Below are positions 2,770 through 33,721 of a stretch of DNA of 64,000 bases, piece by piece. Numbering within the stretch: the stretch's first letter is position 1; each line of letters starts with the position of its first letter. Under the pieces are notes generated by a model. The model made no database searches. It had not been told where the DNA came from and saw nothing but the letters and a program-made list of their open reading frames with translations. The position numbers and the translations under genes are program-made. The stretch is from Saprospiraceae bacterium (GTDB taxonomy: Bacteria > Bacteroidota > Bacteroidia > Chitinophagales > Saprospiraceae): positions 5,686-69,685 of the forward strand of contig JANRME010000304.1 in assembly GCA_033761835.1 (NCBI GenBank), written 5' to 3'.

Positions 2770-3234
2770 TTATGGCAATGTATTAATATCTACTACTCTA
2801 TGATAAGTAGCAAGCCCATATCCTTTATAAACATTCTTTATTTCGATGGGGGCAGGTAGCTTTGGATCAAGAGGATAAGTGGTCAAACTTAATTGTTCAT
2901 CCCCATCAAAATATATGGCTTGAGTTCTCCAAATAAATTTTTCGTAATTATACCTGTAATAAACTTTTCCTCGACCTAAAATTTTTTCTTGATCGAGTAA
3001 AGGCGTTTCGCTTTGTAATACAAAAGATTTTCCTTTACCACTATTATCGGTTTCTAATAGTAGAACAACACCTTCTTTATAAGGCACGAGTCGAGCAAAG
3101 CCTTCAAATACTGTGTATTCGTCATTCTTATCAAATTTAGAAAAATCAAAACGTTCTGTAAGATTTAATTTTTCTTCTGTTTTGCAGGAAAGTAGTCCTG
3201 CCAGTAATAGTAAAGATAATACATAATTTTTCAT
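2770..3234 (-). CDS. Paralog P1 of the lipoprotein family; N-terminal module only, no Cys-rich tail
   Basis: 154 aa. Signal peptide plus lipobox (LLLLAGLLSC). It shares blocks with the next three genes (EYTVFEGFARLVP, FVLQSETPLL..EKILGRGKVYYR, YFDGDEQLSL, GYGLA..VVDIN) and ends at ...VVDINTLP, exactly where the Cys-rich tail begins in the others. Confidence 0.75.
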   Translation of the reverse strand: MKNYVLSLLLLAGLLSCKTEEKLNLTERFDFSKFDKNDEYTVFEGFARLVPYKEGVVLLLETDNSGKGKSFVLQSETPLLDQEKILGRGKVYYRYNYEKFIWRTQAIYFDGDEQLSLTTYPLDPKLPAPIEIKNVYKGYGLATYHRVVDINTLP

Positions 3235-3252
3235 ATCTGTCCAATTTAAAGA

Positions 3253-3855
3253 TTAAGTATTAATACATTCAATACAACAAGCAAAATAACCACTTGAGCA
3301 ATTTACTAAACAATTACAGTTTGGATCTGGGTTACCATTTATTGTACACCAAGGATGCCCCGGACCTCCCTCATCGCAATCACCTCCGCTTTCACTATTT
3401 TCTTTACATTTACAACTTGCATCCCCAGGCTCTTCTAAATAATTTATATCAACCAATTGATTAAATTGAACGAGCCCAAATCCTGTATAGGAGTTTTTTA
3501 GTTTTATGGGAAGAGTAATATCAGAGAGAAATAAACTAAGTTGTTCATTTCCATCAAAATATAATAAATCACCTCTATAATAAATTTTACCTTGACCTAA
3601 TGTTTTCTCTTCTTTAAGAAGAGGCATTGTAGATTGCAGTAAAAAAGTTTTACTTTCTTGCTTATTATTATTTTCAACGAATAAAACAATACCCAATTTA
3701 CTTGGAACTAATTTTGCGAATCCCTGCAAGATAAAATATTCAGACTTAGAATTTAAGTCTGAAAGATCAACCTTTTCGGTAAAGTTTAAGTCTTCTTTTA
3801 GGTTGCAACTAAGCAAGGTTATAAGCCACAATAAAAAATATGATGATTTTTTCAT
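3253..3855 (-). CDS. Paralog P2: lipoprotein with 10-Cys C-terminal tail
   Basis: The start is placed at the internal ATG (CAT at 3853-3855), giving MKKSSYFLLWLITLLSC, a signal peptide with a lipobox. The N-terminal module is homologous to P1/P3/P4. Tail: PGDASCKCKENSESGGDCDEGGPGHPWCTINGNPDPNCNCLVNCSSGYFACCIECINT. Confidence 0.8.
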   Translation of the reverse strand: MKKSSYFLLWLITLLSCNLKEDLNFTEKVDLSDLNSKSEYFILQGFAKLVPSKLGIVLFVENNNKQESKTFLLQSTMPLLKEEKTLGQGKIYYRGDLLYFDGNEQLSLFLSDITLPIKLKNSYTGFGLVQFNQLVDINYLEEPGDASCKCKENSESGGDCDEGGPGHPWCTINGNPDPNCNCLVNCSSGYFACCIECINT

Positions 3856-3896
3856 AATCTTATTTAATAATTTATTTATAAAATGCTTTATTTTTA

Positions 3897-4502
3897 TTAA
3901 TTGCAGTGTATACAACATGCAAAGTAGCCAGAACTACAAGTAACAGAACAATTACATTCATCTGGTGGTGAACCACCACCAACACTACAATCTTGTGCCC
4001 CTGGTCCTCCAGCGTCACAATCACTACCAGAGGAAGCATTTTCACGACATCGACAACTCGCATCACCTGGGTTCTCAAAATAATTTACGTCAATTAATTG
4101 ATTATATCTGGCAAGTCCGAATCCCGAATATGCCTGTTTTAACTTGATAGGTAAGTTAACGTCAGAGAGATATAAACTAAATTGTTCTACACCATCAAAA
4201 TAAAGTAAATTTTCTTGATAGTAAATTTTACCTTGTCCTAAAACTCTTTCTTTATTAAGAAGAGAAACCTTAGTTTGCAACAAAAATGTTTTATTTTCTT
4301 GTTCAGTATTCCCTTCAATAAACAAAATAAGACCCATTTTACTTGGCATCAATCGAACTGAGCCTTGAAAAACCGTATATTCTGGTTTAGAATTTAATTC
4401 AGAAAGATCAATTTGCTTAGTAAATTTTAGATCTTCATTAAGGTTACAGCTTATGCTTATAAGCAAAGTGACCAATACATAAGTATATAATAAAATTTTC
4501 AT
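3897..4502 (-). CDS. Paralog P3: lipoprotein with 10-Cys C-terminal tail
   Basis: 201 aa. Lipobox at LLISISC. Tail: PGDASCRCRENASSGSDCDAGGPGAQDCSVGGGSPPDECNCSVTCSSGYFACCIHCN. Confidence 0.8.
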   Translation of the reverse strand: MKILLYTYVLVTLLISISCNLNEDLKFTKQIDLSELNSKPEYTVFQGSVRLMPSKMGLILFIEGNTEQENKTFLLQTKVSLLNKERVLGQGKIYYQENLLYFDGVEQFSLYLSDVNLPIKLKQAYSGFGLARYNQLIDVNYFENPGDASCRCRENASSGSDCDAGGPGAQDCSVGGGSPPDECNCSVTCSSGYFACCIHCN

Positions 4503-4553
4503 GATGTCAAAGTTTACAATTTAAAATCTCTATAAATGGATTCATTTAAATAA

Positions 4554-4561
4554 CAAAACTA
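4554..4561 (-). promoter_or_regulatory. Candidate Bacteroidota -7 promoter element for P3
   Basis: The plus strand reads caaaacta, which is TAGTTTTG on the minus strand and fits TAnnTTTG. It lies about 50 nt upstream of the P3 ATG at 4502. Confidence 0.3.
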
Positions 4562-4776
4562 AAAATTCCTAGTCTAATGCTTAAGTATTGGATAATCGAT
4601 TAATATGATAATAAAATCATAGATCGAAATAATCCCTGAGAGAATTGAATCTAAAAAACATCACACAAGGGCATTACATAGGTTTCACGGATCCCGCTGA
4701 TTATTGAAAAACCTATCTGCTAAATCTGCGCGATGCAAAGCAAAATTTGTATGAAAGAAAGTTCGATTTAATTTAC

Positions 4777-5373
4777 TTATGGCTTACAATGTTTACAACA
4801 AGCAAATGTGCCACTTGTACAATTATTAATAAAACATGAGCATTCTATACCAGTTCCAACGGAGCAGCCGGATGATCCTGGTCCTCCAGCATCACAATCA
4901 CTTCCACTTTCGCTATTATCAATACACTCACAAGTTGCATCTTCTGGATGAAGATTCTTGAAATCAATAAATTTATTAAATGCAGCAAGCCCAAATCCTG
5001 TATAAGAATTTTTTAGCTTTATGGGAGGAGTAACATCAGAGAGATATAAATTAAATTGTTCATTGCCATCAAAATATAATAAATCACCTCTGAAATAAGC
5101 TTTCCCTTTTCCTAATATCTTTTCCTTATAAAGGGATGAAGATTTAGTCTGTAGTCTAAATGTCTTATCTCCTTGGTCATTTTTACCTTCAAGGTATAAC
5201 ACTATTGCTTTCTGAGTAGGAACTAGTCTAGCAAAGCCTTCGTAAACTTGGTATTCATCATTTGAATTCAATTTGGAAAAATCAACTCGAGTAATACTGG
5301 ATAAATCTTTTTCAAGATTATAGGAAGTAACTCCTGCTATTAATAGCAGAATCATGGAAAGATTGGTAAACAT
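4777..5373 (-). CDS. Paralog P4: secreted protein with 10-Cys tail; lipobox Cys replaced by Tyr
   Basis: 198 aa. The hydrophobic N-terminus MILLLIAGVTSY has TAT (5320-5322) where the paralogs have the lipobox Cys. Tail: PEDATCECIDNSESGSDCDAGGPGSSGCSVGTGIECSCFINNCTSGTFACCKHCKP. Confidence 0.8.
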   Translation of the reverse strand: MFTNLSMILLLIAGVTSYNLEKDLSSITRVDFSKLNSNDEYQVYEGFARLVPTQKAIVLYLEGKNDQGDKTFRLQTKSSSLYKEKILGKGKAYFRGDLLYFDGNEQFNLYLSDVTPPIKLKNSYTGFGLAAFNKFIDFKNLHPEDATCECIDNSESGSDCDAGGPGSSGCSVGTGIECSCFINNCTSGTFACCKHCKP

Positions 5374-5677
5374 AACTATGATGTTTTAAGGGTTAAAGGA
5401 ATTATTACAAAGCTATAGCCTTTTTTTACAAAAAACAAGTAATAGAATGTTAAAATTGAATATTATTTAAACTTTTATAATAGATCTAAGTCAAAACCAT
5501 AGTTTTCAATTGACAATCATCAATTGATGCATGGCGTCTGTTAAAACGGAGGGTGGAGCTTTGGGCGAAGCCCTCTTTGTTTTTACACTTTTCGGCAATT
5601 CCTTTTTTCAAGTTCCGGCAAAAGTTGCTTATTTGCGTTAAATTTGAAGCCATTTTGAATATCAAAAAATTTCAACC

Positions 5678-6304
5678 ATGAAAGATATGTGCGTTTTTTT
5701 GGATCCCGGGCACGGTGCATTGGATAAAAATGGGAATTACGTAACCGCCCCAGCCAAGCAATTTCAACATACTCAAGGTACTTTTCACAATGGACGCTGG
5801 TTTTATGAGGGTGTTTTCAATCGCGTAATGACCAATCGCGTCGCTATGAAATTACAAAGGCTCAATATTCCTTATCTCATCGTCGCCCACGAATATCTGG
5901 ATACACCGCTGGAGTATCGAGTGAATATGGCGAATTGGTATCACCGCAATTTCAAGCCAGGTATTTATATTTCTTTTCATGCGAATGCTGCCAATGGGCA
6001 AGCGCGGGGCTATGAAGTTTATACTTCACCCGGTAAAACCGATTCCGATTCCGTAGCGGAGTTACATTGGAATAATGTAAAAGACTTATTGAGTAGCAAA
6101 ATTTCAATGCGCCCAGACACCGCTGACGGCGATGTCGATAAGGAAGCGAATTTTTATGTATTGCGCAATACCGCGATGCCCGCTATTTTGATTGAGCATT
6201 TGTTTTTTGACAATTTTGAAGACGCAAAGCTGCTGCTGGATGACGAGGTTGTAGATTTATTCGCAGAAGCAACAACGAGAACGATCGTTCAGTGGTTTAA
6301 ATAG
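5678..6304 (+). CDS. N-acetylmuramoyl-L-alanine amidase (Amidase_3-like), no signal peptide
   Basis: Motifs FLDPGHG, ISFHANAANG and ILIEHLFFDN match the Amidase_3 Zn-ligand blocks. The N-terminus MKDMCVFLDPGHG has no leader. Confidence 0.75.
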   Translation: MKDMCVFLDPGHGALDKNGNYVTAPAKQFQHTQGTFHNGRWFYEGVFNRVMTNRVAMKLQRLNIPYLIVAHEYLDTPLEYRVNMANWYHRNFKPGIYISFHANAANGQARGYEVYTSPGKTDSDSVAELHWNNVKDLLSSKISMRPDTADGDVDKEANFYVLRNTAMPAILIEHLFFDNFEDAKLLLDDEVVDLFAEATTRTIVQWFK

Positions 6305-6322
6305 GAATCAATCATTCCCGAA

Positions 6323-7981
6323 ATGACAAATAAAGAAATCGCCAAAGCTTTTCAATTTCTGGGGGAAATCATGGAATTGCATGGGGAAAATCCCTTTAAA
6401 ATCAAGTCTTACCAGAGTGCTTATATTACTTTGCGGAAGCTCGATCAGCCCTTGGCAGAGATGAGTGAGGAAGAAATTGCCAATATTAAAGGCGTAGGAA
6501 AGGCGATTGCAGGCAAAATCCGGGAATTATTGGACAACGGCAAAATGGAAACCCTTGAAAAATACAAGGAAATGACGCCGTCGGGTGTGCAAGAAATGCT
6601 TAATATCGCTGGGTTTGGCCCGAAAAAAGTACTCACGGTCTGGAAAGATTTGGGCGTGGAAAGTGTTGGAGAATTGCTTTATGCGGTGAATGAGAATCGC
6701 TTGATCGAACTGAAAGGTTTTGGCAAGAAGACACAAGATGACCTGCGGCAGAAATTAGAATATTATCAAAGGTCTAAAGATAAATTTCACTATGCGGCGC
6801 TTGAAACCGAAGCTGAAAAATTGTTGCGACAAATTCAAGAACAATTGCCTAAAGCCAATGTCAGTCTGACCGGAGCGATGCGTCGCCGTTGCAATATCGT
6901 TGATGCTATCGAATTGTTAATTGGAACGGAAAGTAATCTGGAGCAATTGTTTCAAAATCAGTTTCTTACAAAGAAAAAACAAAGCGATACTGTAATCTAT
7001 GCTGACACCACGGATGGCTATCCTGTGATGATTTACTTTTGCAAACCAGCAGAATTTGGCTCGAAATTATTTCGCTATACTGCTTCCCAAGTTTTTTTAG
7101 AAGGCTTTATTCAACGTTTTCCAGGGCTTGATTTTAAAGGTTTGGCCGAAGAACAAGACGTTTTTGCAAAAGCAAATCTGCCTTATATTGAACCCGAATT
7201 GCGCGAAAGCGAAGCTATCATTGAAAAAGCGCTGGCTGGAAAATTGCCTCCGTTGCTCGAAGAACGCGATATTCGTGGTGTATTGCATGCGCATTCGACG
7301 TATAGCGACGGGCTGCATTCCTTGCGGGAAATGGCAGAATATGTACAGCGTCAGGGCTACGAATATCTGGGCATTACCGACCACTCCAAATCAGCATTTT
7401 ATGCGAATGGTTTGCAAGTGGAAGGCGTCCTGCAGCAATGGGCGGAGATTGATGAATTGAACAAAGAACTCGCGCCTTTCCGCATTTTCAAAGGTATAGA
7501 AAGTGATATTTTGAACGATGGCTCCCTCGATTATGAAGAAAATATTCTGAAACAATTCGATTTTATTATCGCTTCGGTGCATAGCAATCTGCGCATGGAC
7601 GAGGCAAAAGCCACGCAACGCTTGATCGCAGCGATTGAAAATCCTTATACCAAAATTTTAGGCCACCCAACCGGGCGTTTATTGCTTTCTCGAGAGGGCT
7701 ATCCGATTGATCATCAAAAAGTTATCGATGCTTGCGCTGCTAATGACGTAGCGATTGAGTTGAATGCGAATCCTTACCGCCTTGATTTGGATTGGACATG
7801 GATACCTTATGCGCTTGAAAAAGGTGTGAAAATTGCGGTCAATCCTGATGCGCACAGCCGGGAAGGCGTGCATGATATTCATTTTGGGGTGCTTTCTGCA
7901 CGTAAAGGTGGATTGACTGCGGAAACTTGTTTGAATTGCCTCAATGTCAATGAATTCGGAAAATTTTGCCAAAAAGCATGA
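6323..7981 (+). CDS. Family X DNA polymerase with C-terminal PHP domain (PolX)
   Basis: 552 aa. N-terminal helix-hairpin-helix segments (IKGVGKAIAGKIRELL; GFGPKKV; LKGFGKKTQDDL) and C-terminal PHP motifs (GVLHAHSTYSDG, ITDHS, ASVHS, NPDAH). Confidence 0.85.
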   Translation: MTNKEIAKAFQFLGEIMELHGENPFKIKSYQSAYITLRKLDQPLAEMSEEEIANIKGVGKAIAGKIRELLDNGKMETLEKYKEMTPSGVQEMLNIAGFGPKKVLTVWKDLGVESVGELLYAVNENRLIELKGFGKKTQDDLRQKLEYYQRSKDKFHYAALETEAEKLLRQIQEQLPKANVSLTGAMRRRCNIVDAIELLIGTESNLEQLFQNQFLTKKKQSDTVIYADTTDGYPVMIYFCKPAEFGSKLFRYTASQVFLEGFIQRFPGLDFKGLAEEQDVFAKANLPYIEPELRESEAIIEKALAGKLPPLLEERDIRGVLHAHSTYSDGLHSLREMAEYVQRQGYEYLGITDHSKSAFYANGLQVEGVLQQWAEIDELNKELAPFRIFKGIESDILNDGSLDYEENILKQFDFIIASVHSNLRMDEAKATQRLIAAIENPYTKILGHPTGRLLLSREGYPIDHQKVIDACAANDVAIELNANPYRLDLDWTWIPYALEKGVKIAVNPDAHSREGVHDIHFGVLSARKGGLTAETCLNCLNVNEFGKFCQKA

Positions 7982-8231: not shown

Positions 8232-9344
8232 ATGAAAAATATTTACGTAGCGGCGACTGGACAACACGTTGGGAAGACGACTTCTACGCTGGGTTTGGTG
8301 GTGAATCTGGCGGAGAAAGGCATTAAAACTGGGTACTGCAAGCCGGTCGGGCAACAATCTGTGAATATTGATGGTGCAAGCGCTGATAAAGACGCTGTCC
8401 TGTTCTCTGATTTTTTGCATTTCAGCATGAATCCTGATTTGCATAGCCCAGTAGTACTTGGCCCTGGCATTACTCGCCGATATATCAATGATGAAAGCCA
8501 ATTTGATTTTCGGGATAAAATTTTAAATGCTGCTAATCAATTAGAAGCATTTTATGATTTGGTTGTATATGAGGGAACTGGTCATCCAGGCGTGGGTACG
8601 GTCGTGGACTTGTCGAACGCGCAAGTAGCCAGAATGCTCGATTGTGGGGTAGTCATGATTGTAGAAGGCGGTATTGGCAATACGATTGACCGCTTGCATA
8701 TGAGTTTGGCCTTGTTTCGGGAAGAAAAAGTACCGATTTTGGGAGTGATTGTGAATAAAGTGTTTGAAGAAAAAAAAGAAGAAATAGAATATTATTTGCG
8801 TCAGAAATTTGATCGGATGGACATCCCCTTGCTTGGGGTCTTGCCTTATGATAAATCTTTGTCCTTTCCGATTATGGAAACCGTGAATCAAGCGGTGGAT
8901 GGCAAAGTTGTACTAAATGAAGATCGCCTGGGCAATCGGGTTGAGGATATTATCGCTGGCTCTCTGCTGGATATAGATGAATTTAGTTCTTTTAATAATG
9001 TATTATTAGTTGTTAGTTATGGTCGTATAGATGAGGCCATTTCTAAAATTGAAGATATTTGTACAATGAAAGGCCTCACGGAGTCTCCACTTTCAGGGGT
9101 AATAGTGACAGGAGATGGCAGACATGAGCGCTGGTACGAACGTGCCGATTTCAGCAAGCCTTATTTTGTGGAAAATGAAATTCCCGTGATAACAACGCCT
9201 TTTGATACGTATGGTTCCGTGGTGAAAGTAAGTCGTATTGAAGTGAAAATTAATACCAAAACGCCTTGGAAAATTAAACGCGCGGTAGAACTCATCCGCG
9301 AGCATGTGGACATGGAAAGACTGGTAGGGCAATTGGTTTGGTGA
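8232..9344 (+). CDS. Pta-N-terminal-like protein (BioD-like P-loop plus DRTGG-type domain)
   Basis: 370 aa. The N-terminus MKNIYVAATGQHVGKTTSTLGLV is a BioD/CobQ-like P-loop. The overall architecture resembles the N-terminal regulatory half of phosphotransacetylase without the catalytic PTA domain. This is a recollection-based assignment. Confidence 0.55.
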   Translation: MKNIYVAATGQHVGKTTSTLGLVVNLAEKGIKTGYCKPVGQQSVNIDGASADKDAVLFSDFLHFSMNPDLHSPVVLGPGITRRYINDESQFDFRDKILNAANQLEAFYDLVVYEGTGHPGVGTVVDLSNAQVARMLDCGVVMIVEGGIGNTIDRLHMSLALFREEKVPILGVIVNKVFEEKKEEIEYYLRQKFDRMDIPLLGVLPYDKSLSFPIMETVNQAVDGKVVLNEDRLGNRVEDIIAGSLLDIDEFSSFNNVLLVVSYGRIDEAISKIEDICTMKGLTESPLSGVIVTGDGRHERWYERADFSKPYFVENEIPVITTPFDTYGSVVKVSRIEVKINTKTPWKIKRAVELIREHVDMERLVGQLVW

Positions 9345-9346
9345 GG

Positions 9347-9424
9347 TTGGTTGCCGATTATTAGTTGTTGGTTATCAGTTAATTGGGAGCGCTAGGCTTC
9401 CGCAATAACCGATAACCAATAACC
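9347..9424. terminator. Long imperfect palindrome filling the convergent gap (candidate bidirectional terminator or REP-like element)
   Basis: Core arms ttggttatc (9368-9376) and gataaccaa (9411-9419), with imperfect outer extensions (ggttgccgattatt versus aataaccgataacc). Confidence 0.4.
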
Positions 9425-9428
9425 ATTT

Positions 9429-10358
9429 TTACATCAGATTATCATACACATCCATCACAGATTTCACTGCCTCAGAAGATTCCTGAAGTAGCTTCATCTC
9501 GTCAGCGTTGAGCTTTAATTCGATCACTTGATTGATACCGTTTTTGCCCAATTTCACAGGTGCGCCTACATACACGCCATCAATGCCATATTGACCTTCC
9601 AGCTTTATGCAGCAAGGGAAAATCCGATTTTCATCTTTTACAATCGCTTCTACCATTTGAGCAGCCGCCGCGCCTGGCGCATACCAAGCAGAAGTACCCA
9701 TGAGTTTTACCAACTCGCCGCCGCCCACTTTGGTGCGTTCTACAATAGCATCCAAGGTATCAGCAGCAATTAACTCAGTCACAGGAATCCCAGCAACCGT
9801 TGTATATCTCGGAAGTGGCACCATCGTATCACCATGACCACCCATCAGCACAGCTTGAATATCTTTCGGTGAAACCTGCAATTCAGTCGCCAAGAAAGCA
9901 CGGTAACGTGCAGTATCCAAAATACCTGCCATACCAAAAACCTTGGAAGCGTCCAAGCCAGAGGTTTTGTGTGCTGCGTACGTCATCACATCCAAAGGAT
10001 TGGAAACAACAATGATGATGGGGTTCGCAGAATGTTTCATAATCGAATCCGTAACAGAACTAACGATTTTGGCATTCGTAGAAATTAAATCGTCGCGGCT
10101 CATACCCGGCTTCCGCGGAATACCTGCGGTAATGACCACAATATCAGAACCAGCGGTGTCTTTATAATCATCCGTACCCACCAGATAAGTGCTGTAATTG
10201 TCAATCGGAGCTTGTTGCCAGCTATCCAAAGCTTTGCCTCTGGCAAGGTCGCCCTGAATATCCAATAGGATTACTTCTTTCACAATATCCTTGTGTGCCA
10301 ATACATTCGCGCAAGTGGCACCTACATTTCCGGCGCCTATAACGGTTACTTTGCTCAT
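9429..10358 (-). CDS. mdh: Malate dehydrogenase (LDH-like family)
   Basis: The start is placed at the ATG (CAT at 10356-10358), giving MSKVTVIGAGNVGATCA, a Rossmann motif. Also present: GIPRKPGMSRDDL and MGGHGDTMVP. Confidence 0.9.
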   Translation of the reverse strand: MSKVTVIGAGNVGATCANVLAHKDIVKEVILLDIQGDLARGKALDSWQQAPIDNYSTYLVGTDDYKDTAGSDIVVITAGIPRKPGMSRDDLISTNAKIVSSVTDSIMKHSANPIIIVVSNPLDVMTYAAHKTSGLDASKVFGMAGILDTARYRAFLATELQVSPKDIQAVLMGGHGDTMVPLPRYTTVAGIPVTELIAADTLDAIVERTKVGGGELVKLMGTSAWYAPGAAAAQMVEAIVKDENRIFPCCIKLEGQYGIDGVYVGAPVKLGKNGINQVIELKLNADEMKLLQESSEAVKSVMDVYDNLM

Positions 10359-25970: not shown

Positions 25971-26292
25971 GGTAGATTGAACTTTTTTTGGTTAAATAAT
26001 GAATGAAATACTTTTGTTAAAATAATCGCCACGTACAAAAAATTAAAAGATTGATAATCAATAAACTGAATATTAATCAATAATCAATTGTAAATAGACA
26101 ATTATAGATTGGGGCTGTTAATGTGCACACTATCAGCAAGTTAAAATTGTCAATTTAAATATTTTTGTATTATTTTGTTGACATCAGATAGACTTGGCAT
26201 TTCGATTAAGGTTTAATGCGGTTTAAAAAAATTTTCAAATAAATTTTAATAACCTGGAGTGTCCTATATTTCGCTTCTTATCTTTGCTTCCG

Positions 26293-26838
26293 ATGAATGA
26301 AGGAAGGGTCATATTAAACCAAGAAAGATTCGCACTCACAATTGAACGACTTTGCCAGCAATTGATTGAAGAGTACGATGATTTTAACGCTACCTGTCTG
26401 GTAGGCATTCAAACTGGTGGCGCAGTGCTGACCGATCGTTTGTGTCAAAGAATTCAGGAAATTCTTGGAATTCCCAAATTGGCAAGCGGCAAGCTGGATA
26501 TTACTTTTTATCGCGATGATTTTCGCCGCAGAGATAAACCACTCGCGCCGAGCGCCACTGAAATGGATTTTATCGTAGAGGATAAAAATGTGGTGTTGAT
26601 CGATGATGTATTGTACACGGGGCGCACGACGCAAGCCGCGCTCACTGCGCTCAATCATTTTGGCCGGCCGCGCTCGGTAGAATTATTGGTGATGGTTGAT
26701 CGAAGATTCAATCGGCATTTGCCGGTGCAGCCCGATTTTGTTGGGATTGTCATAGACGCACTCGACGAAGCCTACGTGCGCGTGGAATGGCAGGAAGAAA
26801 ATGGCGAAGATCGAATTTTATTGTTTGCAGATAAATGA
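26293..26838 (+). CDS. pyrR: PyrR (uracil phosphoribosyltransferase / pyr regulator family)
   Basis: PRPP-binding motif VVLIDDVLYTGRTTQAAL plus overall PyrR-like length and blocks. ATG at 26293 (the listed ORF begins at a TTG at 26284). Confidence 0.85.
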   Translation: MNEGRVILNQERFALTIERLCQQLIEEYDDFNATCLVGIQTGGAVLTDRLCQRIQEILGIPKLASGKLDITFYRDDFRRRDKPLAPSATEMDFIVEDKNVVLIDDVLYTGRTTQAALTALNHFGRPRSVELLVMVDRRFNRHLPVQPDFVGIVIDALDEAYVRVEWQEENGEDRILLFADK

Positions 26839-26890
26839 GTTGGTTAATTTTTATTTGTTATCAAGTTTTCTTGTTCTCTATGTCACGCAG

Positions 26891-26928
26891 TCTGGCATCT
26901 TTAAATCTGGCATCTGGCATCTTTAAAA
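26891..26928 (+). repeat. Short tandem repeat immediately upstream of the pyrB start
   Basis: TCTGGCA occurs at 26891, 26906 and 26913. The first and third copies are followed by TCTTTAAA, giving a TCTGGCATCTTTAAA unit twice. The pyrB ATG is at 26930. Confidence 0.8.
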
Positions 26929-26929
26929 T

Positions 26930-27862
26930 ATGAGCATAACACAAGAACTGAGTACGAAACACTTACTGGGCATCAAATACCTCAACCCCGAGGACATACA
27001 TCTTATTTTTGAAACCGCCGACAGCTTTAAAGAAGTTATCAACCGCCCTATCAAAAAAGTCCCTTCGCTCCGAGATATTACCATTGTTAATTTGTTTTTT
27101 GAAGATTCTACCCGTACGCGCATTTCCTTCGAGCTTGCGGAGAAGCGCCTTTCTGCAGATGTACTCAATTTCTCAGCATCTTCTTCTTCTGTGAAAAAAG
27201 GGGAGACCTTACTTGATACCGTCAATAATATCCTTTCCATGAAAGTGGATATGGTCGTGATGCGCCATCCCGCGCCTGGAGCGCCACATTTTCTGGCTCG
27301 CCATATCGACGCCAATATTATCAATGCTGGTGATGGCACACACGAGCACCCCACCCAAGCTTTGCTCGATGCTTATTCTATTCGTGAGAAACTCGGTACT
27401 TTAGAAGGTAAGAAGGTGGCTATATTTGGAGATATTCTACACTCCAGGGTAGCTTTAAGCAATATCTTTTGTCTAAAGAAATTGGGTGCAGAAGTCATTG
27501 TCTGCGGCCCGCCGACTTTGATTCCAAAACATATTCATGAACTGGGAGTTGGTGTAGAATACAATGTACGCAAAGCCTTGGAATGGTGTGATGTAGCGAA
27601 TATTCTTCGCATTCAATTAGAACGGCAGGACATCAAATACTTTCCTTCTCTCCGTGAATACGCGCAATATTTTGGCATCAACAAAGCCCTACTCGACAGC
27701 TTGAACAAACCCATCGTCATCATGCACCCCGGCCCGATCAATCGCGGCGTGGAAATCACCAGCGATGTCGCTGATTCTGAGCATTCTATCATTTTACAAC
27801 AAGTAGAAAACGGTGTAGCCGTGCGCATGGCGGTGCTGTATTTGCTGGCAGCGCGAGGGTGA
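26930..27862 (+). CDS. pyrB: Aspartate carbamoyltransferase catalytic subunit
   Basis: Motifs FFEDSTRTRISFE (STRTR), HEHPTQALLD (HPxQ) and HPGPINRG. Confidence 0.95.
   Translation: MSITQELSTKHLLGIKYLNPEDIHLIFETADSFKEVINRPIKKVPSLRDITIVNLFFEDSTRTRISFELAEKRLSADVLNFSASSSSVKKGETLLDTVNNILSMKVDMVVMRHPAPGAPHFLARHIDANIINAGDGTHEHPTQALLDAYSIREKLGTLEGKKVAIFGDILHSRVALSNIFCLKKLGAEVIVCGPPTLIPKHIHELGVGVEYNVRKALEWCDVANILRIQLERQDIKYFPSLREYAQYFGINKALLDSLNKPIVIMHPGPINRGVEITSDVADSEHSIILQQVENGVAVRMAVLYLLAARG
27822..27858 (+). repeat. Direct repeat copy 1 (last 37 nt of pyrB coding sequence before the final Gly codon and stop)
   Basis: tgcgcatggcggtgctgtatttgctggcagcgcgagg is identical to 28689-28725. Confidence 0.95.
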
Positions 27863-27908
27863 TGTGCGGACACTGACAGGCAGGCAATCCGGCGCTAACT
27901 TTGGCTTA

Positions 27909-28340
27909 TTAATTCTTCAAAAGGCGAGTTCCGGTAAGTAATTCCAAGAAATCATCCGCAGAAATAACTGGGACACTAGGGAATGCAATATCTTTTAATG
28001 CCTTGAAATGGCGGTCTTCTGTAACGATAAAATCAGCATTGGCAGCAATGGCGCAGTCCACGAACTTATTATCATCGGGGTCTTCCCGAATTAAATTCCA
28101 AAAAAAGTATTTTGAAATCTGCACGGTATCTGGGGAATTTTCAATCGCTTTTAAGGTATTTTCTGCAACGCTTGGCCGAAGGCTGTATTTCTCTTGCAGT
28201 TTTTCGGCATATTCGGAAAGAATATCGGTTGTGACACAAAGCTCAAACCCGCCATTTAGAAAAGCATCGAAAATAGGATAATACGGAGTTCCAAAAGGAA
28301 TGGAAACCAGTAACACATTGGTATCCAATACGACTCTCAC
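27909..28340 (-). CDS. PIN-domain toxin (PIN_3 / TIGR00305-like TA toxin)
   Basis: 143 aa with a GTG start. Contains MRVVLDTNVLL, DPDDNKF and FIVTEDRHF, the acidic residues typical of PIN nucleases. A 4-nt GTGA overlap links it to the upstream small ORF. Confidence 0.8.
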   Translation of the reverse strand: MRVVLDTNVLLVSIPFGTPYYPIFDAFLNGGFELCVTTDILSEYAEKLQEKYSLRPSVAENTLKAIENSPDTVQISKYFFWNLIREDPDDNKFVDCAIAANADFIVTEDRHFKALKDIAFPSVPVISADDFLELLTGTRLLKN

Positions 28341-28585
28341 TTTTGCTCCTTTTTATAGGGGGTGCGCATATTTTCTTGAAGCAGTTCTTGGGCATCATAG
28401 CCTTTCTTTTCCCAAACTGCTTGCGCTTCGGCACTGGCTTTATCGGCAAAATATCGCGCTATCATCCTTTGAATAACCTTCAAATCTTCATCTGCAACAC
28501 CATCCGCATAGAGCCTCAATAACTGAAGTTGCAGATTACTAAGTGGAAGAGAAAGTGGAGCGGCATTCGGTTCTTGTGCTTGCAT
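28337..28585 (-). CDS. Putative cognate antitoxin
   Basis: 82 aa counted from the ATG (CAT at 28583-28585); a TTG at 28612 is an alternative start. Its stop overlaps the toxin start. The product is small and helical (LQLQLLRLYADGVADEDLKVIQRMIARYFADKA). No family recognised. Confidence 0.6.
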   Translation of the reverse strand: MQAQEPNAAPLSLPLSNLQLQLLRLYADGVADEDLKVIQRMIARYFADKASAEAQAVWEKKGYDAQELLQENMRTPYKKEQK

Positions 28586-28688
28586 GTCCGTTGTTTTACG
28601 CTTAATGTGCAATGTTTAACAAATTTAGCCCTTTTTTGTCAAGGGGGCAATTCCTTTTTTCAAAAAAGATTAGTCAATCGCGCCAGAC

Positions 28689-28725
28689 TGCGCATGGCGG
28701 TGCTGTATTTGCTGGCAGCGCGAGG
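28689..28725 (+). repeat. Direct repeat copy 2 (orphan duplicate of the pyrB 3' end)
   Basis: Identical 37-mer. It is followed by ataa (Gly-stop kept in frame), where copy 1 has gtga. Confidence 0.95.
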
Positions 28726-28906
28726 ATAAAAATGCATTAAGCAGTTTCAATTAAAACGTCGATAAAAAAGTGCATCTAAAATGTCTATTTTAGAGTTATT
28801 CTTTTATTATTGTACAAATGACTTTTAGAGCTTGTTACATAATCTAAAGTATGCCCCGTTTTCTTGTTAGATAAAATCCTTTACAGGACATTCAAAATGA
28901 ATTAGT

Positions 28907-31324
28907 ATGAAATTAAAGCAGATCCAATTTGCCATTTATTCATTGATTGCCTCCATGATTTGCGTGAGCGCATCGGCTCAGACCGAGCAATACCAGGATT
29001 ATCCGATCACGCCTGTTCCTTTTTCTAAAGTGCAGATCAAAGATAATTTTTGGGCACCTAAAATCCGTACGAACCACGATGTGACCATCCCGATTGCTTA
29101 TGAACAGAGCAAAAAAACAGGGCGCATTGATAATTTTAAAATCGCCGGCGGCTTGATGGAAGGGCAATTCTGCACCGAATACCCTTTCGACGATACCGAT
29201 ATTTACAAAATCATTGAGGCGGCGAGTTATTCCATCCAAACCTTTCCAGATAAAAAAATGGAAAACATGATGGATTCTTTAATTTCGTATATTGCTGTTG
29301 CTCAAGAGGATGATGGGTATCTTTATACCACGCGTACCATTGGCAAAAATGTGCATGAATGGGCGGGAGAGCAACGTTGGGAATTGGTACATGATCTGAG
29401 TCATGAATTGTATAATCTGGGGCATCTGTTTGAAGCGGCGGTAGCGCATTACTCGGCTACGGGCAAGCGCAATCTCTTAGATATTGCCATCAAAAGCGCG
29501 AACCTGATTTGCAATGAATTTGGTGAAGGCAAAATTGTCAATTATCCTGGGCATCAGGAAGTGGAGATTGGTTTGGTCAAATTGTATCGCGTCACCAAAG
29601 ATGAGCGTTATTTGAAACTCGCCAAATTTTTCCTGGACGTGCGCGGCAGAGCAAACGTCGGAAAGCCAGCAAAATATAGCCAATCGCATATTCCTGTTAC
29701 CCAGCAAAAAGAAGCCGTCGGGCACGCAGTACGCGGCGCGTATATGTGGACGGGCATGGCAGATATTGCAGCCATCATGGGTGATGAAGCATATATGAAA
29801 GCGATCAATAATATCTGGCATGATATAGTTGACAAAAAATATTATATTAATGGCGGTATCGGCGCTACGGGCAGCGGCGAGGCTTTTGGCGAGGCTTACG
29901 AATTGCCGAATATGTCTGCTTATTGCGAAACTTGCGCCGGCGTGGGCAATGCGATCTGGAATTATCGGATGTTTTTGATGACGGGCGAAAGCAAATTCAT
30001 TGATGTGTTGGAAAGGTCTATGTATAATAATATTATAGATGGCGTTTCTTTATCAGGTGATCGCTTTTTCTACCCGAATCCTTTGGCTTCTTATGGTCAG
30101 CACGAGCGAAGCGAGTGGTTTGGGTGTGCTTGCTGCCCGCCAAATGTGGCGCGTTTTCTGCCTTCAATGCCAGGTTATATTTATGCACAAAAAGATAATG
30201 ATATTTATGTCAATCTTTACATAGCCAGTGAATCTACTTTTAATGCAAATGATAATCTATTGACAATCAGTCAACAAAGCGGGTTTCCCTGGCAAGGCGA
30301 TGTTAAAATTAATTTTAAATCTATTAAGCCTATTGATGCCAATATAAAGCTCCGCATTCCAGGTTATGCAATTAATCGCCCTGTGCCGAGTGATTTATAT
30401 ACGTATTTGGATGCAAATCCTGATCCTATTGTAATAAAATTAAATGGCAAAAAGGTTGATTATCAAATCGATGATAAGGGTTATGTGAATATTGCTAAAA
30501 AATGGACGAGCCGTGATGTCATCGAAATTGCTTTTCCGATTGTAACGGAAATTGTGCAATCGCACGCTGGAGTAACTGAAAATACCGGCAAAATCGCTGT
30601 GGAACGCGGTCCAATCTTATATTGCGCTGAATGGGCAGATAATCCTAATGGGGAAATTTTAAATTTAATTGTGCCTGAAAATCAAGATTTTAAAGCAGTT
30701 AAATCGGAAAAATTAGGTGGCATTTACACCATCGAAGCGACTGCCAAAAGAGCAAAACGCAACCTGAAAGGCGAAGTAGAAGTCAGCAATAGCAACCCAT
30801 TGACACTGATTCCGTATCACCTTTGGAACAATCGAGGTCCGGGAGAAATGAGTGTTTGGCTGGCGACGGATTTGAGCAGCGCCCGCCCTGCCCCTGCGCC
30901 CACCATTGCCAACAAAAGTAAGGTCACGGCTTCTGTCAAAACCAAAGCGATCCGCGCGGTGAACGACCAAATGTATCCAAAAAATTCCAACGACCATACG
31001 ATACCTTATATTCATTGGTGGCCCAAAAAAGCGACGAGCGAGTGGATGCAATTTGATTTTGAGCAGCCGCAAGAAATATCCTCGGTGAAAGTATATTGGT
31101 TTGACGATGGACCACATGGGGGTTGTAGAATTCCGGCAAGCTGGGAAGTGCAGTATAAAGAGGGCGAAGAATGGAAGCCCGTGCAAGCAGCCAGCGCTTA
31201 CAAAGTGACCAAAGATGATTGGGATGTAATTCAATTTAAATCATTGAAAACTAGTGCGTTGCGACTTGTTGTCAATCTACCGCAGGAATATGCTACTGGT
31301 ATTTATGAAGTAATTATTGAGTGA
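28907..31324 (+). CDS. GH127-family beta-L-arabinofuranosidase-like enzyme with C-terminal discoidin/F5-8-type-C-like domain
   Basis: 805 aa with a signal peptide. SAYCETCAGVGN (E-x-C) and WFGCACCPPNVARF (CC) correspond to the Glu/Cys3 Zn site described for GH127 HypBA1. The C-terminal ~140 aa is a beta-sandwich-like carbohydrate-binding-type module. Confidence 0.8.
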   Translation: MKLKQIQFAIYSLIASMICVSASAQTEQYQDYPITPVPFSKVQIKDNFWAPKIRTNHDVTIPIAYEQSKKTGRIDNFKIAGGLMEGQFCTEYPFDDTDIYKIIEAASYSIQTFPDKKMENMMDSLISYIAVAQEDDGYLYTTRTIGKNVHEWAGEQRWELVHDLSHELYNLGHLFEAAVAHYSATGKRNLLDIAIKSANLICNEFGEGKIVNYPGHQEVEIGLVKLYRVTKDERYLKLAKFFLDVRGRANVGKPAKYSQSHIPVTQQKEAVGHAVRGAYMWTGMADIAAIMGDEAYMKAINNIWHDIVDKKYYINGGIGATGSGEAFGEAYELPNMSAYCETCAGVGNAIWNYRMFLMTGESKFIDVLERSMYNNIIDGVSLSGDRFFYPNPLASYGQHERSEWFGCACCPPNVARFLPSMPGYIYAQKDNDIYVNLYIASESTFNANDNLLTISQQSGFPWQGDVKINFKSIKPIDANIKLRIPGYAINRPVPSDLYTYLDANPDPIVIKLNGKKVDYQIDDKGYVNIAKKWTSRDVIEIAFPIVTEIVQSHAGVTENTGKIAVERGPILYCAEWADNPNGEILNLIVPENQDFKAVKSEKLGGIYTIEATAKRAKRNLKGEVEVSNSNPLTLIPYHLWNNRGPGEMSVWLATDLSSARPAPAPTIANKSKVTASVKTKAIRAVNDQMYPKNSNDHTIPYIHWWPKKATSEWMQFDFEQPQEISSVKVYWFDDGPHGGCRIPASWEVQYKEGEEWKPVQAASAYKVTKDDWDVIQFKSLKTSALRLVVNLPQEYATGIYEVIIE

Positions 31325-31334
31325 AATTATCACC

Positions 31335-31367
31335 AGATTTAGGAAATTTTTAAAATTTCCTAAATCT
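31335..31367. repeat. 33-bp perfect palindrome between the two GH127-like genes
   Basis: The sequence is agatttaggaaatttt + t + aaaatttcctaaatct, giving 16-bp arms. Confidence 0.9.
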
Positions 31368-31390
31368 CAACTTTAAAATAAGGGATTATA

Positions 31391-33721
31391 ATGAAAAAGC
31401 TCCGAAATACGCTTATTTATTGCAGTTTAATTTTATTTTCTATTACATCCTTATTATATGCTCAAAATCGCCAGGAAGTAAAGCCCTTCGCTTTAAGCGA
31501 CGTAAAACTGCTGGAAGGACCATTTAAACACGCTACCGATCTGAATATCAAATCTTTATTGAGCTACGAGCCGGATCGGCTGCTGGCGCGGTTTCGGTCG
31601 GAGGCAGGTTTGGAGCCAAGAGCCGAATCGTACAAAGGTTGGGAGGCGCAAATGCTGGCGGGGCATAGCCTCGGGCATTACCTGAGCGCTTGTGCGATGA
31701 TGTATCAAACTATTGGGGATAAGCAATTTTTGGATCGCTTGAATTACATCGTGGACGAGTTGGAAATCATACAAAAAGCCAATGGTGGCGGGTATCTTGG
31801 CGCTTTTACCAATGGCAAAAAGATTTTTGAAGAAGAAATTGCAAAAGGCAATATCCGGTCGCAAGGCTTTGATTTGAATGGGATTTGGTCGCCATTTTAT
31901 ACCCATCATAAAGTGTTCGCGGGCTTGCGCGATGCTTATCGTTTGTGCGGCAATAAAAAAGCGCTGACACTGGAAGCCAATTTTGCAGATTGGGTGGAGA
32001 CCATTGTGCGACCTTTGACGGAGGAGCAGATGCAGGAGATGCTCCGTTGCGAATTTGGCGGCATTCAGGAGACTTTTGCACAATTATACGAAGATACCGG
32101 GAATAAAAAATACCTGGATTTGGCGCGGGTTTTTCATCACAAAGCAATCGTTGATCCGCTGGCGGAAGGCAAGGACGTTATGCCTGGCAAGCATGGCAAT
32201 ACACAAATCCCAAAACTCAATGCTTACGCGGTTTTTTACGAATTGACTGGCAATGAAAAAGATCGAAAAGCAGCGGAATTCTTCTGGAATACAGTGGTTC
32301 ATCATCATTCTTATGTGACCGGCGGAAACGGGAATCACGAGTATTTTGGCGAGCCGGATAAACTGCGCAATCGCCTGAGCGAAGGCACCACCGAGACTTG
32401 CAATGTTTATAATATGCTCAAACTCTCCGAGCATTTGTTCTTGTGGAAGCCAGATGCCCAGGTGGCGGATTTTTATGAAAGGGCTTTGTTCAATCATATT
32501 TTGTCCACACAGCATCCTGAAACGGGGCGAGTGATTTACAATTTATCCTTGGAAATGGGCGGTCGGAAATATTATCAAAATCCGTATTCCTTTACTTGTT
32601 GCGTCGGCTCCGGCATGGAAACCCATAGCAAATACGGCGGTAGTATTTATTATCATAATAATACAGAATTGTATGTAAGTCAATACATTGCATCGGAAGT
32701 GAATTGGAAAGAGCAGGGCATTCAATTTACCCAAACGACCAAATTCCCGGAAGAACAAGGCACGAGTTTTACATTTCAAATGAAAAAAGCGAAGGAATTG
32801 ACGCTGCATTTGCGCTATCCGCATTGGGCAGAAAAAGGAATAGAAGTCTTGGTCAACGGCAAGAAGCAAGTCGTTAATAGCCGACCCGGAAGCTTTGTTT
32901 CCATCAAACGCAAGTGGAAAAACGGGGATAAGGTGGAGGTGAAATTTCCGTTCTCATTAAGATTAGAAGCCATGCCGGATGACCCTGCGCGGATTGCGGT
33001 GTTTTATGGTCCGGTGGTACTCGCAGGAGATTTGGGTCCGAATGAAGATGAAAATGCGACTTCACCAGATTATGTACCGATTTTTATGTCGGAAGAGCGG
33101 AATCCCAGCGCTTGGCTGGAGCCGGTTGCAGGGCAAGTTAATGTCTTCAAAACCAAGGGAGTAGGCAAACCCAGAGAGGTAGTTTTTAAACCATTTTATC
33201 AAACACATGACCGTCGGTATTCAATTTATTTTGACTTGTTCAATGAGCAAAAATGGAAGGAATTCCAGGCAGCCTATCAGGCAGAACAAGAACGCAAAAA
33301 GAAGCTGGAAGCCATGACTTTCGATGCGTTTCAGCCGGGTGAAATGCAGCCCGAACGCGACTATAATTTCACAGGCGATAAGTTGAATCTGGAAGAAAAT
33401 TTCCGGGGTAGAAAAGCGCGGGGTTCCGAGCGCGGCGGCTGGCTTTCGTTTGAGATGAAAGTGATGAAAGGGCAACCAATGGCTTTGGTGCTGGAATATT
33501 GGGGCGGTTATACCGGTTCTAAAACTTTTGACATTCTGGTGAATGATATAAAAATCGCAACAGAAAACATTAGTGGAAAACGAGATGGAGAATTTATTGA
33601 TATCCAATACAATATCCCAGATGCAATTACTGCCGAGACCGACAAAGTGACCATCAAACTGATGCCGCACGAAGGACACCGAGCAGGTCCATTTTTTTAT
33701 GCGCGCACGATCAAAAGATAA
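31391..33721 (+). CDS. GH127/GH146-like (DUF1680) glycoside hydrolase
   Basis: 776 aa with a signal peptide. GTTETCNVYNM (E-x-C) and FTCCVGSGMETHSKY (CC) are conserved with the upstream paralog. Confidence 0.75.
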   Translation: MKKLRNTLIYCSLILFSITSLLYAQNRQEVKPFALSDVKLLEGPFKHATDLNIKSLLSYEPDRLLARFRSEAGLEPRAESYKGWEAQMLAGHSLGHYLSACAMMYQTIGDKQFLDRLNYIVDELEIIQKANGGGYLGAFTNGKKIFEEEIAKGNIRSQGFDLNGIWSPFYTHHKVFAGLRDAYRLCGNKKALTLEANFADWVETIVRPLTEEQMQEMLRCEFGGIQETFAQLYEDTGNKKYLDLARVFHHKAIVDPLAEGKDVMPGKHGNTQIPKLNAYAVFYELTGNEKDRKAAEFFWNTVVHHHSYVTGGNGNHEYFGEPDKLRNRLSEGTTETCNVYNMLKLSEHLFLWKPDAQVADFYERALFNHILSTQHPETGRVIYNLSLEMGGRKYYQNPYSFTCCVGSGMETHSKYGGSIYYHNNTELYVSQYIASEVNWKEQGIQFTQTTKFPEEQGTSFTFQMKKAKELTLHLRYPHWAEKGIEVLVNGKKQVVNSRPGSFVSIKRKWKNGDKVEVKFPFSLRLEAMPDDPARIAVFYGPVVLAGDLGPNEDENATSPDYVPIFMSEERNPSAWLEPVAGQVNVFKTKGVGKPREVVFKPFYQTHDRRYSIYFDLFNEQKWKEFQAAYQAEQERKKKLEAMTFDAFQPGEMQPERDYNFTGDKLNLEENFRGRKARGSERGGWLSFEMKVMKGQPMALVLEYWGGYTGSKTFDILVNDIKIATENISGKRDGEFIDIQYNIPDAITAETDKVTIKLMPHEGHRAGPFFYARTIKR

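Follow-up and report, generated by a model that had tools for sequence, protein, structure and literature searches.

A 64-kb stretch of contig JANRME010000304.1 from a Saprospiraceae bacterium (hereafter the window) carries a small toxin-antitoxin (TA) gene pair just downstream of pyrB, and the 3′ end of that gene is present on both sides of the pair. How did this cassette come to lie between two copies of the end of an essential core gene that it leaves undamaged? The original prediction for this locus, made from the sequence alone, had described a perfect 37-bp duplication of the pyrB 3′ end, and a search of the window agrees: the 37-mer TGCGCATGGCGGTGCTGTATTTGCTGGCAGCGCGAGG occurs exactly twice, at 27822–27858 and 28689–28725, and the copies are identical at 37 of 37 positions. 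No further match at up to three mismatches was found in the window, and none is expected by chance (0 in 100 shuffles). The 37-mer had been placed before the final glycine codon of pyrB; its position was correct, but it includes the first two bases of that codon. The first copy is the pyrB terminus and reads on into G TGA, and the second reads on into A TAA, so that two mismatches sit within the 5 nt just past the perfect repeat (positions 38–42).

The filled and the empty site at pyrB

An exact-sequence look-up returned no identical records of the window pyrB and PIN proteins, and a genome scan with pyrB gave only relatives of at most 86% amino acid identity, which are too distant to prove an empty site. 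A protein search, on the other hand, led to a pyrB product (P0122) that is 98% identical at the amino acid level and is encoded on a 790-kb Saprospiraceae contig of assembly GCA_016714085.1. This locus is referred to as L098, the L-numbers being labels of the related loci compared with the window. By blastn, window positions 26109–27858 correspond to L098 5229–6929 and window positions 28689–33720 to L098 6893–11966. Both flank alignments therefore overlap on one and the same 37-mer copy in L098 (6893–6929), which has 2 mismatches to the window copies. The L098 37-mer runs into GGA TAA AAATGCATTAA..., as does the right-hand copy in the window, and the next gene is the GH127 gene. Synteny between the two loci extends to both sides of the insert at 86–88% nucleotide identity. 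Because the two flank alignments meet on a single 37-mer, the 830 nt at 27859–28688 are an insertion, and because L098 keeps the GGA TAA ending found at the right-hand window copy, the present GGG TGA ending of pyrB must have arrived with the insert. The junction alignment likewise assigns positions 27859–27862, the last base of the pyrB glycine codon and the TGA stop, to inserted DNA. The insertion of an 830-nt TA cassette at the pyrB 3′ end, with the gene end restored by the insert, is thereby confirmed, and the empty site with a single 37-mer that the original prediction had proposed to look for in a relative is present in L098. The order of an empty site reads pyrB ... 37-mer ... GGATAAAAATGC, and the junction of a circle released by excision would read ...CGCGCCAGAC + 37-mer + GTGATGTGCGG...

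A wider comparison points the same way. The TA pair is present at pyrB in 0 of 86 related pyrB loci, including loci whose pyrB is 95–98% identical, and insertion is therefore more parsimonious than repeated loss. Two observations that could have undermined the prediction went in its favor here: relatives do not share the duplication with the TA genes at a fixed position, and the 37-mer is no widespread intergenic repeat, since it is found twice in 64 kb and once in relatives. GGG TGA is the natural pyrB ending in one relative (L099). Downstream of pyrB, synteny is different in nearly every relative.

The displaced gene end has left a trace in the open reading frame (ORF) list. As predicted, a spurious 66-codon ORF (28529–28729) is closed by the glycine codon and stop of the second copy, with the ancestral stop at 28727–28729, and its product ends ...RMAVLYLLAARG. 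The base composition of the insert shows nothing unusual, and the region 26000–29200 contains no Rfam matches.

The inserted gene pair and its surroundings

Only two genes lie between the 37-mer copies, a PIN_3 gene and a small partner ORF upstream of it on the same minus strand, and the stop of the partner overlaps the GTG start of the PIN gene by 4 nt (GTGA, 28337–28340). This is the arrangement that the original prediction had read from the letters. The PIN protein scores 75.3 bits against PF13470 (cut-off 27) and 45.1 bits against TIGR00305 (cut-off 29.15), and more than 2000 homologues were found at E ≤ 1e-10. Its conserved active-site acidic residues (D6, E43, D87, D89, D90, D95 and D109) are all kept, and none of them varies when 14 homologues are aligned. 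The window antitoxin matched no Pfam or NCBIfam family at E ≤ 0.01, and no Pfam family at E ≤ 1. A homologous partner of about 82 amino acids is nevertheless encoded upstream of the PIN gene in 8 of the 10 loci probed, with L096 and L097 lacking a match to the window antitoxin, and its conservation beside PIN_3 genes is not confined to Saprospiraceae (L095, 29% identity). The partner appears to represent an uncharacterised antitoxin family, and the gene pair is a putative type II TA module with a PIN_3 (TIGR00305) toxin. Homologues and sequence context make the ATG at 28585, giving 82 amino acids, the likely antitoxin start rather than the TTG at 28612.

Upstream of the antitoxin gene, the box TAAATTTG matches TAnnTTTG, the −7 promoter motif of Bacteroidota. 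A similar TAccTTTG is found at the equivalent place in L087, and the box probably acts as the promoter of the pair. The small GC-rich hairpin next to it, GCCCTTTTTTGTCAAGGGGGC, may serve as an operator or as an insulating terminator. The conserved core of the cassette consists of the two genes and a short leader (window 27909–28590) and is 80% identical at the nucleotide level to L081; the flanks of the two are unrelated. When the window flanks at 27859–27908 and 28591–28688 were searched in all compared loci and in the rest of the window, nothing meaningful was found. The stops of pyrB and of the convergent PIN gene are separated by a 46-nt spacer without a significant fold (z-score 0.29), which may be donor DNA from downstream of the donor's pyrB; pyrB end and spacer together read GCGCGAGGGTGATGTGCGGACACTGACAGG. 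Coordinates of these features and of their neighbours are collected in the table.

Table. Features of the pyrB locus in the window, in order of position
Feature	Position	Strand	Basis or remark
pyrB, aspartate carbamoyltransferase catalytic subunit, intact	26930–27862	+	Pfam OTCace_N and OTCace; 98% amino acid identity to P0122 on L098
Left 37-nt repeat copy, the functional pyrB end	27822–27858	+	Repeat search
Inserted DNA, 830 nt, missing from the L098 empty site	27859–28688		blastn against L098
Spacer, 46 nt, from pyrB stop to convergent PIN stop	27863–27908		Unique to this copy; no match in any compared locus
PIN_3-family toxin gene (putative), 143 aa	27909–28340	−	Pfam E 9e-21; TIGR00305
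Putative antitoxin gene, 82 aa from ATG at 28585	28337–28585	−	ORF list, homologue alignment; alternative TTG at 28612
Promoter-like box TAAATTTG	28620–28627	−	Fits TAnnTTTG; 34 nt upstream of the antitoxin ATG
Small GC-rich hairpin GCCCTTTTTTGTCAAGGGGGC	28628–28648	+	Directly upstream of the putative TA promoter
Right 37-nt repeat copy, the displaced (fossil) original pyrB end	28689–28725	+	Repeat search, L098 alignment
Ancestral pyrB Gly-stop GGA TAA, continuous with native downstream DNA	28724–28729	+	Identical to L098 pyrB end; ORF list
GH127 beta-L-arabinofuranosidase gene, native downstream neighbour of pyrB	28907–31324	+	Directly behind pyrB in L098

The absence of an integrase or transposase, also part of the original prediction, held for the region analyzed: a Pfam search of every ORF of at least 180 amino acids between 10.5 and 44 kb of the window, about 15 kb on either side of the insert, revealed no integrase, transposase or recombinase domain. 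The genes around the insert are housekeeping and arabinose-utilisation genes. No terminal inverted repeats pair the two insert ends, and no hairpin-type recombination site was detected at them. Two types of element were considered and rejected. A DDE transposon or miniature inverted-repeat element does not fit the lack of terminal inverted repeats or the duplication, which is 37 nt long and varies between sites instead of being short and fixed. An integron cassette does not fit a boundary repeat made of pyrB coding sequence, a spacer without a significant fold and the lack of any integrase found, although no dedicated attC model was run.

Three other features of the window were recorded. To the left of the right-hand 37-mer (28672–28688), gTCAATCGCGcC resembles in frame the INRG codons of pyrB (27739–27750). 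The resemblance could mean that a longer piece of pyrB once lay here and lost an internal part, but it was judged likely to be chance (p about 0.01–0.03, our own estimate) and was not relied on. In the pyrR–pyrB intergenic region (26810–26944), the 15-nt sequence TCTGGCATCTTTAAA is present twice as a perfect direct repeat (26891 and 26913). Identity of this region to L098 is only 40–50%, compared with about 90% for the flanking genes, and there is no Rfam match; the region may hold a pyr leader or attenuator specific to this lineage. Finally, three to four tandem diverged repeats of about 640–870 nt, with segments 65–87% identical, occupy 2809–5285 and are probably a run of paralogous genes with no relation to the pyrB insertion.

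Gene-end repeats around related and unrelated modules

A metagenome scan with the PIN protein gave 8 loci, and 10 distinct contexts were compared for this TA family. In 4 of the 10, the module is flanked by a strong direct repeat (scores 23–41), and the 3′ end of the gene beside the module supplies one of the copies. This gene is different each time: pyrB in the window (37-nt repeat), a response regulator gene in L081 and L104 (about 60 nt), a NACHT gene in L087 (47–64 nt) and an ABC ATPase gene in L106 (43 nt, 98% identical). A fifth context, L089, has an 18-nt repeat across the stop codon of asd with a score of 15. When 515 random module-sized intervals in unbiased loci were scored as a control, none reached the four strong scores and a single one reached that of the fifth context. 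No recombinase genes were found inside the other cassettes of the family. Like layouts are also seen around other modules, encoding ParE, MNT/HepT, HNH, DUF6934 or GxxExxY proteins and sometimes forming arrays, and the repeats range from 18 to 64 nt at the loci of the TA family and from 18 to 255 nt when other cargo is included.

Arrays lie behind the NACHT and response regulator genes. In L087 (4594–7187; also in L088), the NACHT 3′ end is present four times, at 4594–4686, 5435–5497, 6376–6468 and 7141–7187, and these copies separate three modules, namely a PIN_3 TA pair, an HNH + 136-aa module and a ParDE pair. Copies 1 and 3 have more in common: the stop codon, 14 nt and a stretch with a promoter-like TAccTTTG (91% identity over about 120 nt in all), and from this common stretch it follows that one leader precedes two different TA pairs. 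In L081 (3829–5506; also in L082–L086, L090 and L104), three allelic ends of a LuxR-type response regulator gene bracket an HNH + 81-aa module and a PIN_3 TA pair. The most distal copy is 94% identical to the functional end and the middle copy 80%. This structure is present in assemblies from six metagenomes (L081–L086).

Other cargo is found at pyrB itself and at further genes. In another Bacteroidota lineage (L027, 5680–7137), a 255-nt duplication of the pyrB 3′ end with 94% identity brackets a DUF6934 gene (6207–6653) and a small following ORF, and the distal copy runs on into downstream DNA that is conserved in relatives. In L002 (5930–6722), a GxxExxY gene (TIGR04256; 6124–6495, minus strand) lies directly behind the pyrB stop between 136-nt flanking direct repeats of 79% identity. 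Together with the TA pair of the window and the DUF6934 gene of L027, this makes three small modules directly behind pyrB among the compared loci. In L072 (8724–9657), a ParE-type TA pair (Unstab_antitox 8926–9165, ParE 9149–9475) is bracketed by a 112-nt repeat, which takes in the final 84 nt of a Pyr_redox_3 gene together with the stop and 28 nt of the sequence that follows. An MNT/HepT TA pair (2121–2754) in L097 (2011–3745) lies between 33-nt repeats of the end of a HAD-domain gene, and a 73-nt leader at 2045–2117 of this locus recurs at 3673–3745 ahead of an antitoxin–PIN_3 pair. Last, a non-Saprospiraceae contig with hom, rpsB and tsf as neighbours (L095, 1783–4285) holds an array of four TA-like modules. 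There, two inserted PIN modules lie between the copies of a 212–240-nt duplication, which comprises the promoter of a Phd-like antitoxin gene and the 5′ two-thirds of that gene, and a 64-nt hairpin-containing repeat (AATGACGACAAAGTTTCTGTTGTTTTGTCGTCG...), which may be attC-like, is found at three module boundaries.

Where the paired gene ends differ, the differences have the look of alleles. The two copies in L027 are distinguished by 14 synonymous changes and 1 non-synonymous change, and those in L081 by 10 and 1, whereas decay of a non-coding duplicate would be expected, by our own estimate, to yield about 60% differences of the non-synonymous type. The 15 differences in L027 were not polarisable, as relatives are only about 78% identical. 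Each copy moreover ends in its own in-frame stop: GGG TGA and GGA TAA in the window, TGA and TAG in L106, KG* and R* in L081, and ...KMNEEL* and ...KIMMNDE* in L087. Mismatches gather at the cassette-proximal end of the repeat, as in L072, where all three fall in the last 15 of 112 nt. Because of the synonymous bias, the separate stops, the clustering of mismatches and the natural occurrence of GGG TGA in L099, the functional copy looks like a donor allele of the gene end that arrived with the cassette. Such allele-like differences in turn disfavor a simple target-site duplication.

Routes of entry and relation to known systems

We lean towards the view that the cassette was acquired by homology-anchored recombination from a donor that already carried it behind its own pyrB, with one illegitimate joint; in this account the pathway of recombination, the arrangement in the donor and the effect of addiction are inferred. 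A selfish type II TA cassette, made up of promoter, 82-aa antitoxin and PIN_3 toxin, would have entered the lineage horizontally and without a dedicated recombinase. The donor would have been a related bacterium with the cassette just behind a pyrB allele ending in GGG TGA. On the pyrB side, the incoming DNA would have recombined by pyrB homology; on the far side, without homology, an illegitimate joint would have formed 43 nt upstream of the recipient stop codon. Homology beyond pyrB would usually be lacking, because downstream synteny differs in nearly every relative. The product would be an intact pyrB with a donor-type end, the cassette and a displaced copy of the recipient's last 37 + 6 nt. 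A Campbell-type single crossover of a circle carrying the pyrB end and the cassette would give an identical product, but the 18-nt asd repeat is, by our reasoning, too short for this variant. Duplications of 18 to 255 nt fit a variable illegitimate joint and do not fit a fixed crossover site. Once in place, the cassette could be excised precisely by recombination between the 37-nt repeats. TA addiction would counter-select its loss, and cargo of this type may survive because addiction selects against deletion. The pathway would be homology-facilitated illegitimate recombination, which PMC6382021 presents as a documented RecA-dependent route for foreign DNA.

Several points weigh against this account. 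A donor lineage with the order pyrB, 46-nt spacer, PIN gene was not found among the relatives searched, and the closest PIN genes (85% amino acid identity) lie at a response-regulator locus and not at pyrB. Both window copies are identical, yet differ from L098 at 2 positions, and a duplication in situ therefore explains them equally well. A sliding comparison of pyrB identity with L098 shows no foreign tract. Experiments on homology-facilitated illegitimate recombination usually delete, rather than duplicate, recipient DNA, and we know of no natural competence or other DNA uptake in Saprospiraceae. The mechanism also leaves unexplained how the cassette first became associated with each of the different genes. 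An assembly artefact would undercut the account as well, although this is unlikely.

The original prediction had explained the locus by site-specific integration into the 3′ end of a conserved gene. Insertion and restoration of the gene end were correct, but an integrase with an att site now seems improbable to us as the mechanism. Under this explanation a tyrosine or serine recombinase would have used the 37-mer as att core, with the element carrying a replacement gene end and the integrase lost from a larger island or supplied in trans. A perfect core flanking the insert at both junctions, together with an insert that restores the glycine codon and stop of pyrB, is indeed the classical signature of an integrative element, and the L081 and L087 arrays, split by att-like repeats, resemble tandem accretion at att sites. 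The remaining marks of such an element are missing, however. The insert measures only 830 nt, and no recombinase gene was found in it or within about 15 kb on either side. Nor is there a common att core: the gene ends around homologous cassettes come from four or five different genes (pyrB, response regulator, NACHT, ABC ATPase and asd), with repeats of 18–64 nt that no one attP or specificity fits and that share no motif on inspection by eye. At least six other compact modules have a like layout, again without recombinases. A different att sequence at every locus, repeats of 18–255 nt and the lack of any recombinase found thus argue against site-specific integration. The idea of a minimal remnant of a larger island finds no support, as clean pruning to about 0.8 kb so many times is unlikely, and nothing in the data speaks for mobilisation in trans by a recombinase.

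Alternatively, the cassette may have been ligated into a 37-nt staggered break at the recipient's own pyrB end, with fill-in producing a literal long target duplication and the terminal bases of the cassette supplying G TGA. The window copies suit such an event well, since they are identical at 37 of 37 positions and have in common two bases that differ from L098, and PMC2853133 reports a class of such insertions, of restriction-modification genes and of an HNH gene, in which the duplications are long and differ in length and mobility genes are absent. It would, however, require an immediate in-frame stop from a random cassette end, the chance of which is about 3 in 64, and the same is seen again at L106, L081 and L087. 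Literal duplication also accounts poorly for copies in L027 and L081 that differ almost only at synonymous positions, in 25 of 27 differing codons, against the roughly 60% non-synonymous-type differences of our own estimate, and for mismatches that gather at one end of the repeat. We consider it an unlikely explanation, on a par with the integrase. Least probable of all is that the TA pair and its duplication are ancestral and were lost by repeat recombination in L098 and the other relatives, or that they arose in metagenome assembly. Recombination between the 37-nt repeats would restore exactly the L098 sequence, and the window probably derives from an assembled contig (87.8 kb). But 86 of 86 related pyrB loci are without the TA pair, even where pyrB is 95–98% identical, and the perfect identity of the copies argues for a recent event. 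An assembler, for its part, needs both junctions in real DNA, and like architecture recurs in independent assemblies from six metagenomes (L081–L086).

Comparison with known systems places the locus in an existing class. Insertion with long target duplication was first found by comparison of Helicobacter pylori genomes (Nobusato et al. 2000, Gene 259:99) and was later extended to all types of restriction-modification systems in several phyla (Furuta et al. 2010, NAR, PMC2853133). Members of this class have duplications that are long and vary in length, no mobile element of another type accompanies them, and their mechanism has not been settled; in Haemophilus influenzae, 46-bp repeats overlap a gene 3′ end, and among the published cases are an orphan methylase and an HNH gene (mcrA) standing alone (PMC2853133). 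The class and the window have in common a small addiction-type module between variable direct repeats of more than 30 bp that are single in a relative, without transposase or integrase. For the window insertion, L098 provides the empty site, the repeats are 37 nt long and 100% identical (>30 bp), the insert is 830 nt long (<20 kb), no mobility gene was found in or beside it, and the repeat is not dispersed, occurring twice in 64 kb. With regard to literal duplication, the window copies show no difference over the 37 nt, yet past this point the functional copy has another glycine codon and another stop, and at L027, L081, L087 and L106 the paired copies differ in the manner of alleles. The cargo is a PIN_3 TA pair and not a restriction-modification system, which was a requirement of the published screen rather than of the mechanism. 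Further differences are the Bacteroidota (Saprospiraceae) host, copies that act as two alleles, each with its own stop, and, at related loci, multi-module arrays split by copies of one gene end. No report of type II TA cassettes with a long target duplication or 3′-end duplication was found in the literature searched. The window case is a member of the known but poorly understood class of insertion with long target duplication, with type II TA genes as a new cargo.

Other systems resemble the locus in part. Homology-facilitated illegitimate recombination similarly combines one homologous anchor with one illegitimate joint and requires no enzyme encoded by the element, and it would explain the donor-allele gene end, the variable position of the joint and the lack of a recombinase. 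It has been described in transformation experiments with Acinetobacter, Pseudomonas stutzeri and Streptococcus pneumoniae in the laboratory (work of 2002 and Meier & Wackernagel 2003, via PMC6382021), whereas here the host belongs to the Saprospiraceae and the end of the anchor is duplicated. Integron cassettes and the pdif modules of Acinetobacter are likewise small, TA-bearing and gathered in arrays, comparable to the repeat-punctuated arrays of L081 and L087 with their modules of about 0.8 kb made up of a promoter and TA genes; the repeats here, however, are coding 3′ ends of host genes and not attC or XerC/D sites, and no IntI was found nearby. Prophage e14 and phage 21 at icd are integrative elements that carry a replacement gene end. 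Like islands that target tRNA genes, they duplicate the gene end, complete the functional copy and leave a 3′ fossil downstream, but each brings its own integrase and is tied to a single fixed att site; the window insert, by contrast, has a length of 0.83 kb, no integrase was found, and the gene end used by the cassette family varies from locus to locus.

The locus provides a clean pair of filled and empty sites in which an addiction module, with no integrase, has invaded an essential core gene at its very end and left the gene undamaged. The recurrence of this layout at many genes and with several cargoes suggests a common route of entry for small defence and addiction modules into Bacteroidota, for which restriction-modification genes have been the main documented example until now. 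Displaced gene ends are allele fossils from the arrival of each module and could help to identify donors and to reconstruct in which order modules were acquired. Since they also create spurious ORFs and apparent gene fragments, annotation pipelines should recognise them. The broader pattern of gene-end fossils and module arrays deserves a systematic census and experimental test. Tentatively, and with more doubt than we attach to the proposed origin of the pyrB insertion, the PIN_3, ParE and MNT/HepT TA pairs and the HNH, DUF6934 and GxxExxY modules of Bacteroidota, including Saprospiraceae, might form a recombinase-free cassette system. Its modules would travel with a short host-gene 3′ end and enter by general recombination through this piece, and successive entries would build arrays split by allelic copies of the gene end, as in L087 (four copies, three modules) and L081 (three copies, two modules). 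If this reading of the arrays is true, these bacteria would possess an integron-like accumulator that relies on host-gene homology in place of attC and IntI and is independent of a recombinase, and addiction would shield its cassettes from deletion through the very repeats that surround them.

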